NCBI RefSeq assembly: GCF_044647545.1
Contig: NZ_CP172818.1
DNA from: Escherichia coli
GTDB lineage: Bacteria; Pseudomonadota; Gammaproteobacteria; Enterobacterales; Enterobacteriaceae
DNA length: 64,000 nucleotides
Direction: 5' to 3' (one strand)
Shown here: in pieces, positions 28,433-29,087 of the stretch
Position numbering within the stretch: position 1 is the first letter of the stretch
Layout of the letters: the number at the start of each line of letters is the position of its first letter
Notes under the pieces: generated by a model
Databases searched by the model: none
What the model was told of the DNA's origin: nothing
What the model saw: the letters and a program-made list of their open reading frames with translations, nothing else
Translations under genes and position numbers: made by a program

Positions 28433-28840
28433 TTATCTTTGCGTCTCTTGTTGTAACAATATCCGCCGTAAATCCCGCCATTCGGCTTCGTCCATGCTGT
28501 CAGCTGCCAGCCATAAATGTTGCCGTTTTCCGCTGTCAGAACGTAAACGCAGCATCATGCCGCTCTTAATCATCCACGGCGCTTTGACGATGCTCCACTC
28601 CTGCCCTTGCCAACGCAAACGCCCGTCCATCAACAAGCGAATTTCCCCCTGGCGAGCATTAATGCGCCGCTGGCTGCGAACGCAATCAAACACCACCAGC
28701 GAAAGTAACACCATCCATAACGGGGTGTAACTGAGCGGCCAGGGCATGAGTAAAATAACAGCGGCAACCAGCCCATGAATCAGCAAGGAAAGCCACTGTG
28801 CGCGCCAGGAGACGCGCAAATCAGATTGCCACAGGACCAC
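28433..28840 (-). CDS. cptA: inner-membrane protein CptA (YgfX), toxin partner of the CptAB pair
   Basis: 135-aa ORF with two predicted TM helices, directly downstream of and overlapping sdhE. Confidence 0.85.
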
Positions 28841-29087
28841 GTTCCCGGTTCCGTGTCTGGATGAGTCGGACCATCATTTCCAGTTCTGCATCGGCTGGTT
28901 TACCGTGATTCATCAGCCAGTTAAACAGGTCCGGATCGTCACATTCCAGCAGACGAATAAAGATGCGTTTTTCGTCATCGCTTAAGCTGTCGTACTCATG
29001 TTCGAAAAACGGCATGATTGAAATATCGAGTTCGCGCATACCACGGCGGCATGCCCAATGAATGCGGGCTTTGTTGTTAATGTCCAT
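28821..29087 (-). CDS. sdhE: FAD assembly factor SdhE (YgfY/CptB)
   Basis: 88-aa ORF containing the conserved RGMRE motif; overlaps cptA by 20 bp. Confidence 0.9.

Follow-up and report, generated by a model that had tools for sequence, protein, structure and literature searches.

Two genes of Escherichia coli K-12, sdhE (b2897; also ygfY or cptB) and ygfX (b2896; also cptA), form an operon in which the end of the first reading frame overlaps the beginning of the second. The same locus lies in the stretch of E. coli DNA analysed here (64,000 nt of contig NZ_CP172818.1; hereafter the window), and the two show no difference of substance: in both, genes of 88 and 135 codons' worth of protein (88 and 135 aa) start with ATG and GTG, respectively, overlap by 20 nt, and have xerD, fldB, ygfZ, and trhA as neighbors. 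Comparison of this junction among species establishes a real and ancient overlap that dual coding has frozen, and it strongly supports the annotated GTG as the cptA start codon.

Homologous pairs have been studied elsewhere. In the sdhEygfX operon of Serratia sp. ATCC 39006, examined by McNeil, Fineran and colleagues, SdhE flavinylates SDH (succinate dehydrogenase) and FRD (fumarate reductase); regulation by RsmA, RsmC, and FlhDC and a prodigiosin phenotype are specific to Serratia (PMC5042078). The Serratia work revealed no toxin-antitoxin (TA) phenotype (PMC3985639). The ygfY-ygfX pair of Shewanella oneidensis is homologous, co-transcribed, and in the same order, with 37 bp between the genes, and shows neither TA behaviour nor an SDH-linked phenotype (PMC8621075). 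A different kind of relative is the classical translationally coupled pair, with its NTGA or TGATG junction (spacing −4 or −1; PMC12548453, PMC6728339). Such pairs are likewise co-directional, with a start codon at or before the upstream stop and a weak downstream ribosome-binding site, but the sdhE-cptA spacing of −20 is longer than the dominant −4 and −1.

In the window the pair comprises two open reading frames (ORFs) on the minus strand. Their main features are as follows.

28821-29087, minus strand: sdhE (ygfY/cptB) coding sequence, 88 aa, ATG start, TGA stop at 28821-28823 (ORF, family matches, RefSeq)
29031-29045, minus strand: RGxxE motif of SdhE, R15-G16-M17-R18-E19 (translation)
28433-28840, minus strand: ygfX (cptA) coding sequence, 135 aa, GTG start at 28838-28840 (ORF, PF07254, RefSeq)
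28821-28840, minus strand: dual-coding overlap GTGGTCCTGTGGCAATCTGA, 20 nt including the sdhE TGA (ORFs and species comparison)

A preliminary description of this DNA had named the two genes, given their products as 88 and 135 aa, placed a 20-nt overlap in different frames between them, and noted two published views of the pair, as an FAD (flavin adenine dinucleotide) assembly factor and as a TA-like module. All of this stands. The identities agree with matches to PF03937, NF008130, and PF07254 and with RefSeq; the sizes agree with the ORF list and the RefSeq coding sequences; positions 28821-28840 are common to both ORFs, whose frames differ ((29087−28840) mod 3 = 1); and both descriptions are found in the literature (PMC8621075, PMC3985639). 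The RefSeq annotation of a strain that is 100% identical over 28300-29350 places both coding sequences at identical coordinates, flanked by dsbC, xerD, fldB, ygfZ, and trhA. A megablast search with the 28300-29350 segment finds a single copy in each of 5425 genomes, out of 5426 complete E. coli genomes, and among the matches listed eight are 100% identical. The pair is thus an ordinary chromosomal core-genome operon, correctly annotated and already known.

Conservation of the junction was evaluated in a set of 80 loci, one per Enterobacteriaceae species, of which 78 were analysable. (The locus search used a 12-sequence alignment and its matches were confined to Enterobacteriaceae; more distant junctions came from nine exact-protein look-ups.) In the window, in these 78 loci, and in the nine distant ones, ygfX lies directly 3′ of sdhE on the same strand. 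The GTG start and the 20-nt overlap are present in 78 of 78 species loci, although these species are related by descent and their counts are not independent events; the GTGGTCCTGTGGCAATCTGA 20-mer itself is identical in 74 of the 78. Such retention argues that the GTG is not a chance gene-caller extension.

The reason for this near-identity lies in the register of the two frames. The overlap encodes SdhE R83-G-P-V-A-I88 plus the stop codon, and simultaneously CptA M1-V-L-W-Q-S-D7. Third positions of sdhE codons are second positions in cptA, and cptA third positions are first positions in sdhE, so that no site in the overlap is free. Per-site entropy across the 78 species is 0.02 bits in the overlap, versus 0.48 over the remainder of sdhE and 0.54 over the 60 nt of cptA that follow. 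Third positions of sdhE tell the same story: mean entropy is 1.02 bits over codons 2-81 and 0.10 bits over codons 82-88, which form the least variable seven-codon window of the gene.

The nine distant homolog loci (L082-L090; about 36-50% identity) were located on their contigs and their junctions read. Five of the nine (L083-L087) have the GTG start and the 20-nt overlap. The other four differ.

L088: GTG start, overlap of 26 nt
L089: ATG start, overlap of 14 nt
L090: ATG start, overlap of 19 nt
L082 (Logan SRR29213555 contig): GTG start, no overlap, junction TAA-C-GTG

In L082 the SdhE protein ends early, at 85 aa, with its stop codon 1 nt before the cptA GTG, which is preceded by a better Shine-Dalgarno (SD) sequence, AAGGAAG. 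The CptA amino terminus is nevertheless retained, which is independent evidence that its residues are selected for CptA and are more than a shadow of the SdhE tail. L082 is a natural un-overlapped junction, and as such a possible comparison for coupling. At least one of ygfZ, fldB, and xerD is kept as a neighbor in all nine distant loci. Judged from these junctions, the exact overlap is a feature of a lineage.

One locus (L076; CACSKA010000005.1) lies on a contig with the title 'Chryseobacterium sp. 18061', but its sdhE-ygfX pair is of the Enterobacteriaceae type, with the same 20-nt overlap and a CptA 75% identical to that of E. coli. This assembly is probably mislabelled or contaminated.

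Protein comparisons also point to the annotated GTG. The amino-terminal motif MVxWQxxLRxS is conserved across 41 full-length CptA homologs; W4 persists down to about 30% identity, and the starts of these remote homologs fall within three residues of that of E. coli. The PF07254 model begins at CptA residue 2. Moreover, AlphaFold2 (AF2) places residues 2-8 in a confidently predicted β-strand, which provides a structural reason for their conservation. Upstream, the frame is closed by an in-frame stop codon at 28876. Together with the species comparison, this evidence strongly supports initiation at the GTG.

SdhE is a soluble FAD-assembly factor for SdhA and FrdA, structurally proven. It matches PF03937 (Sdh5) over residues 7-79 (E 5e-26; 90.8 bits, cut-off 27) and, over its full length (1-88 of 88), the NCBIfam equivalog NF008130, 'FAD assembly factor SdhE' (198.4 bits, cut-off 120). 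Searches of PDB sequences with phmmer retrieve the solved YgfY structure (1X6I; E 8e-59, query 1-88) and two entries in which the molecule is named 'FAD assembly factor SdhE': 6C12 (E 4e-58, query 2-88) and 6B58 (E 2e-51, residues 6-84). We take these last two to be complexes with SdhA and FrdA, respectively. The tail encoded by the overlap falls outside the core domain: PF03937 ends at residue 79, and the match to 6B58 covers residues 6-84. SdhE promotes covalent FAD attachment to SdhA and FrdA (PMC5042078 and references therein), and it carries the conserved RGxxE motif (G16, E19) that flavinylation requires; mutants of these residues, G16R and E19A, were used in PMC8621075. Among the entries listed in supplementary file 2 of PMC13245402, the sdhE ATG start has experimental support from the peptide MDINNKAR, from Ribo-RET, and from INRI. 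The sdhE start is given there as 3,041,070 of NC_000913.3 (minus strand), which would place the cptA GTG at about 3,040,823.

CptA matches PF07254 (Cpta_toxin) over residues 2-131 (E 1e-49; 168.5 bits, cut-off 27.3; profile positions 1-132 of 133); among PDB sequences, and in Pfam beyond PF07254, it has no significant sequence relatives. Hydropathy exceeds 1.6 in windows 14-38 and 36-54. The AF2 model, built with 41 homologs, has a pLDDT (predicted local distance difference test) score of 91.4, and consists of a strand (residues 2-8), two helices (about 12-31 and 36-62), six more strands, and a carboxyl-terminal helix (118-134). CptA accordingly is predicted to be a small inner-membrane protein, a hairpin of two transmembrane (TM) helices with a cytoplasmic β-rich domain. 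This domain appears, with moderate confidence, to be pleckstrin homology (PH)-like; a Foldseek comparison of the model with the PDB found nothing significant (best E 0.019).

How is CptA synthesis initiated and how does the transcript end? Three further elements bear on these questions.

28849-28852, minus strand: SD-like GGAA at −12 to −9 of the cptA GTG, within sdhE codons R79 (CGG) and N80 (AAC/AAT) (conservation)
29091-29096, minus strand: SD-like AGGAAG upstream of the sdhE ATG (sequence; anti-SD duplex −4.3 kcal/mol)
28400-28429, no strand assigned: strong hairpin in the gap between fldB and cptA, whose stop codons converge (folding)

The GGAA element is conserved. Codon 79 of sdhE is the rare CGG in 78 of 78 species, each of its three positions having zero entropy, and the 16 nt upstream of the cptA GTG vary by 0.18 bits per site versus 0.48 elsewhere. 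Among the distant loci, GGAA occupies the matching position in L086 and L087, and L082 has GGAAG. This element would thus serve as a weak, well-spaced SD sequence for cptA, embedded in sdhE. Pairing with the anti-SD yields about −4.3 kcal/mol for sdhE and cptA alike, against a median of −5.6 over 43 long ORFs of the window. Folding of the 120-nt junction is no better than that of shuffled sequence (z = −0.63, with 47 of the 200 shuffles folding equally well). The cptA GUG falls within a small local hairpin, and the near-invariant sequence leaves no covariation by which to judge it.

At the downstream end, the 28400-28429 hairpin is stable on either strand (plus strand, −24.7 kcal/mol, z = −6.2; minus strand, −23.0 kcal/mol, z = −4.7), and has a U-rich tail on the plus strand only; a simple terminator scan did not report it. 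It is likely to be the fldB intrinsic terminator, and may also form the 3′ end or a stabiliser of the sdhE-cptA mRNA. At the upstream end, a scan of 28200-29450 for the σ70 consensus gave no match, and the operon promoter was not located.

This suggests a model for the expression of the pair. One minus-strand mRNA would begin upstream of sdhE and end at the hairpin past the cptA stop codon. CptA synthesis starts at the GUG (28840), 17 nt upstream of the sdhE UGA, so that its first seven codons are shared with the last six codons and stop codon of sdhE, a stretch of 20 nt that dual coding has frozen across Enterobacteriaceae. The initiation site is weak (a GUG with a GGA(A) remnant), and would be occupied by any ribosome that ends translation at the sdhE stop codon. 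With typical footprints, such a ribosome (P site at 28826-28824) would extend over the GUG, 12-14 nt upstream of the P site, and sdhE traffic would therefore affect access to the cptA start. The most likely mechanism would be low-level CptA synthesis tied to sdhE translation, by either of two routes: re-initiation by post-termination ribosomes that move back about 14-17 nt; or maintenance of an open cptA site by ribosomes translating sdhE. Some independent cptA initiation probably occurs too.

Translational coupling, which the preliminary description had suggested, is plausible on several counts, though probably partial. The genes are co-directional and their stop and start overlap, by 20 nt, and co-directional genes that overlap or lie close together are known to be coupled in other cases (PMC12548453). 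Co-transcription is reported for the Serratia (PMC5042078) and Shewanella (PMC8621075) homologs. (In the annotation of a collinear strain, other co-directional overlaps in the surrounding 50 kb measure 4, 1, and 4 nt.) As a whole, the account given here, of a core operon with a GTG start, dual coding, and CptA synthesis tied to sdhE, is probably the best explanation. Coupling, the relative expression of the two genes, the transcript ends, and the function of the PH-like domain are the parts of it that we infer.

A number of points weigh against this account. Coupling is strongest at −4 and −1 and decays with the distance between stop and start (PMC12548453), and a spacing of −20 may couple weakly. 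The folding of the junction, without significant inhibitory structure, lends no support to coupling through RNA unfolding. The conserved GGAA suggests that cptA could be initiated independently. The 37-bp gap in Shewanella and the +1-nt spacing in L082 argue that the exact overlap is not required for the pair to function, and the common descent of the 78 species tempers their unanimity. Finally, the INRI-seq supplements contain no entries for ygfX, cptA, b2896, or sdhE; and ygfX/b2896 is not among the listed entries of TRAINSPOTTER, the 2026 table of N-terminomics, Ribo-RET, and INRI results (PMC13245402), which does list sdhE and ygfZ.

The foremost alternative accepts the overlap but holds that cptA is translated independently, through de novo ribosome binding at the GGAA and GUG, the overlap being a compaction accident that became frozen and plays no part in setting stoichiometry. 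This is possible, and is the best of the competing explanations, yet it is distinctly less probable than the account above. The invariant rare CGG provides a well-spaced GGAA at −12 to −9, in a junction without significant occluding structure; the spacing of −20 is far from the optimal −1 and −4 (PMC12548453); and in deeper lineages the overlap measures 26, 20, 19, 14, or −1 nt, with the +37-nt gap in Shewanella (PMC8621075). On the other hand, a GUG start with an SD match of 3-4 nt makes a weak site, which a ribosome terminating on the sdhE stop codon would cover, if typical footprints apply, and close spacing (26 nt or less) is kept in nine of nine distant loci.

A more elaborate version of the coupled model can be drawn, tentatively and with the odds against it. 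CptA would be a membrane-anchored adaptor with a PH-like cytoplasmic domain rather than a toxin, and the overlap together with the weak ribosome-binding site (the invariant rare CGG) would fix a low ratio of CptA to SdhE through termination and re-initiation. Sub-stoichiometric CptA might, for example, hold or release SdhE at the membrane site of SdhA and FrdA assembly. In such a scheme the overlap would encode the first strand of CptA (residues 2-8), and the carboxyl-terminal hexapeptide of SdhE would be a passenger of the CptA amino terminus and not a working part of SdhE.

It is unlikely that the pair is instead a true type IV TA system, in which CptA acts as a toxin against FtsZ and MreB, CptB (SdhE) is the antitoxin, and the overlap keeps antitoxin in excess, as it does in many TA operons. 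The idea has a history: Pfam names PF07254 a 'membrane-bound toxin component'; toxicity and inhibition of FtsZ and MreB were reported by Masuda et al. in 2012 (as cited in PMC8621075 and PMC3985639); and a homologous pair in A. baumannii was reported as a TA system (PMC8132199). The gene order, a well-translated gene followed by a weakly initiated one, also fits an excess of the first product. However, the Fineran group detected no TA phenotype, and the SdhE-YgfX interaction that they did see was not type IV-like (PMC3985639). The Shewanella pair fails TA criteria, and no interaction between its SdhE and YgfX homologs was seen (PMC8621075).

The nature of the locus tells against a TA system as well. 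SdhE has a solved, dedicated role in complex with SdhA and FrdA (6C12, 6B58). The gene pair is present in 5425 of 5426 E. coli genomes and is syntenic in nine distant loci, unlike mobile TA loci, and PADLOC reports no defence-system hits. The accessory, patchy, and mobile distribution typical of TA genes, which is not strictly defining, is not that of sdhE-ygfX. Comparison with the CbtA/CbeA (YeeV/YeeU) type IV system is instructive. CbtA and CptA have the same claimed targets, FtsZ and MreB, and in both systems the antitoxin is claimed to act on these targets and not on the toxin (PMC8621075). The two are without sequence relationship, however: CbtA/CbeA resides in cryptic prophages, whereas sdhE-ygfX occupies a syntenic core locus in which the 'antitoxin' is a proven flavinylation factor, and the CptA/CptB TA phenotype has not been reproduced by other groups. 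In the literature the TA label is disputed, and it suits a syntenic core-genome locus poorly.

Considerably less probable still is the reading in which cptA starts 3′ of the sdhE stop codon. The preliminary description had named this as the finding that would remove the overlap; species comparison rejects it, and the overlap stands. In-frame start-type codons are the GTG at 28840, TTG codons at 28819 (codon 8) and 28786, and the ATG at 28747 (M32). The first TTG is the obvious candidate.

28817-28819, minus strand: in-frame TTG, cptA codon 8, 1 nt past the sdhE TGA (alternative non-overlapping start, rejected)

Were CptA to begin at this TTG or further 3′, for example at M32, the overlap would be a gene-caller extension. 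The TTG is present in the window, in frame and right after the stop codon, a typical coupling geometry, and the experimental tables examined contain neither an amino-terminal peptide nor a start-site entry for CptA. Yet codon 8 is TTG in only one of the 78 species; the other 77 have TTA (31), CTT (17), CTG (15), CTC (7), or CTA (7), and other E. coli strains (L003, L004) have CTG. Codon 8 drifts synonymously as leucine, and so cannot be a conserved initiation codon. From this codon on, third positions vary (1.14 bits across the 78 species) and first and second positions are conserved, a coding-type variation which shows that the frame is translated there without a conserved start 3′ of the GTG. 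Upstream of the TTG the anti-SD duplex energy is −2.2 kcal/mol. Distant homologs keep CptA residues 2-7, W4 among them, even where sdhE does not overlap. As for M32, it is not conserved in the family (L, T, or I in the 41-homolog alignment), and a start there would remove TM helix 1, where substitutions among codons follow a coding-type pattern.

A programmed frameshift within the overlap, yielding an SdhE-CptA fusion protein, has a negligible chance of being correct: several database proteins (198-217 aa) do carry both PF03937 and PF07254, but each of the nine fusion sequences read stands for only one or two members, the frame switches at different positions, some far upstream of the overlap and some involving deletions, as expected of assembly or sequencing indels, and GTGGTCCTGTGGCAATCTGA lacks a slippery heptamer. 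The fusions P0003, P0004, P0006, P0007, P0009, P0012, P0013, and P0021 (166-217 aa), from metagenome and Logan assemblies, were discarded as indel errors.

Other features of the window may be mentioned. A 153-aa ORF with a TTG start (28269-28730, plus strand) is antisense to cptA and extends over the end of fldB. It lies opposite a conserved coding frame and was treated as probably spurious. In the same 64 kb, the annotation of a collinear strain (L091) includes prfB, with its programmed +1 frameshift (about 23201-24299, minus strand); the 6S RNA gene ssrS (42988-43171, plus strand); the type I toxin gene ibsC (43895-43954, minus strand); and a copy of IS1 (48534-49231, minus strand), these approximate positions being based on collinearity with L091. 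That strain also has uacT annotated as frameshifted.

Databases and the literature already cover the pair, its overlap, and the argument about what it does, and these carry little weight as discovery. The useful outcome is a cptA start set by comparative evidence at the annotated GTG, with the TTG that follows the sdhE stop codon excluded. With this start supported, work on CptA dosage, on the TA claim, and on SdhE-YgfX stoichiometry should use the 135-aa form and the native junction. Moreover, the debated role of YgfX may gain two smaller leads from these observations: the invariant rare CGG as an embedded SD sequence; and a PH-like fold whose amino-terminal strand is encoded by the overlap.

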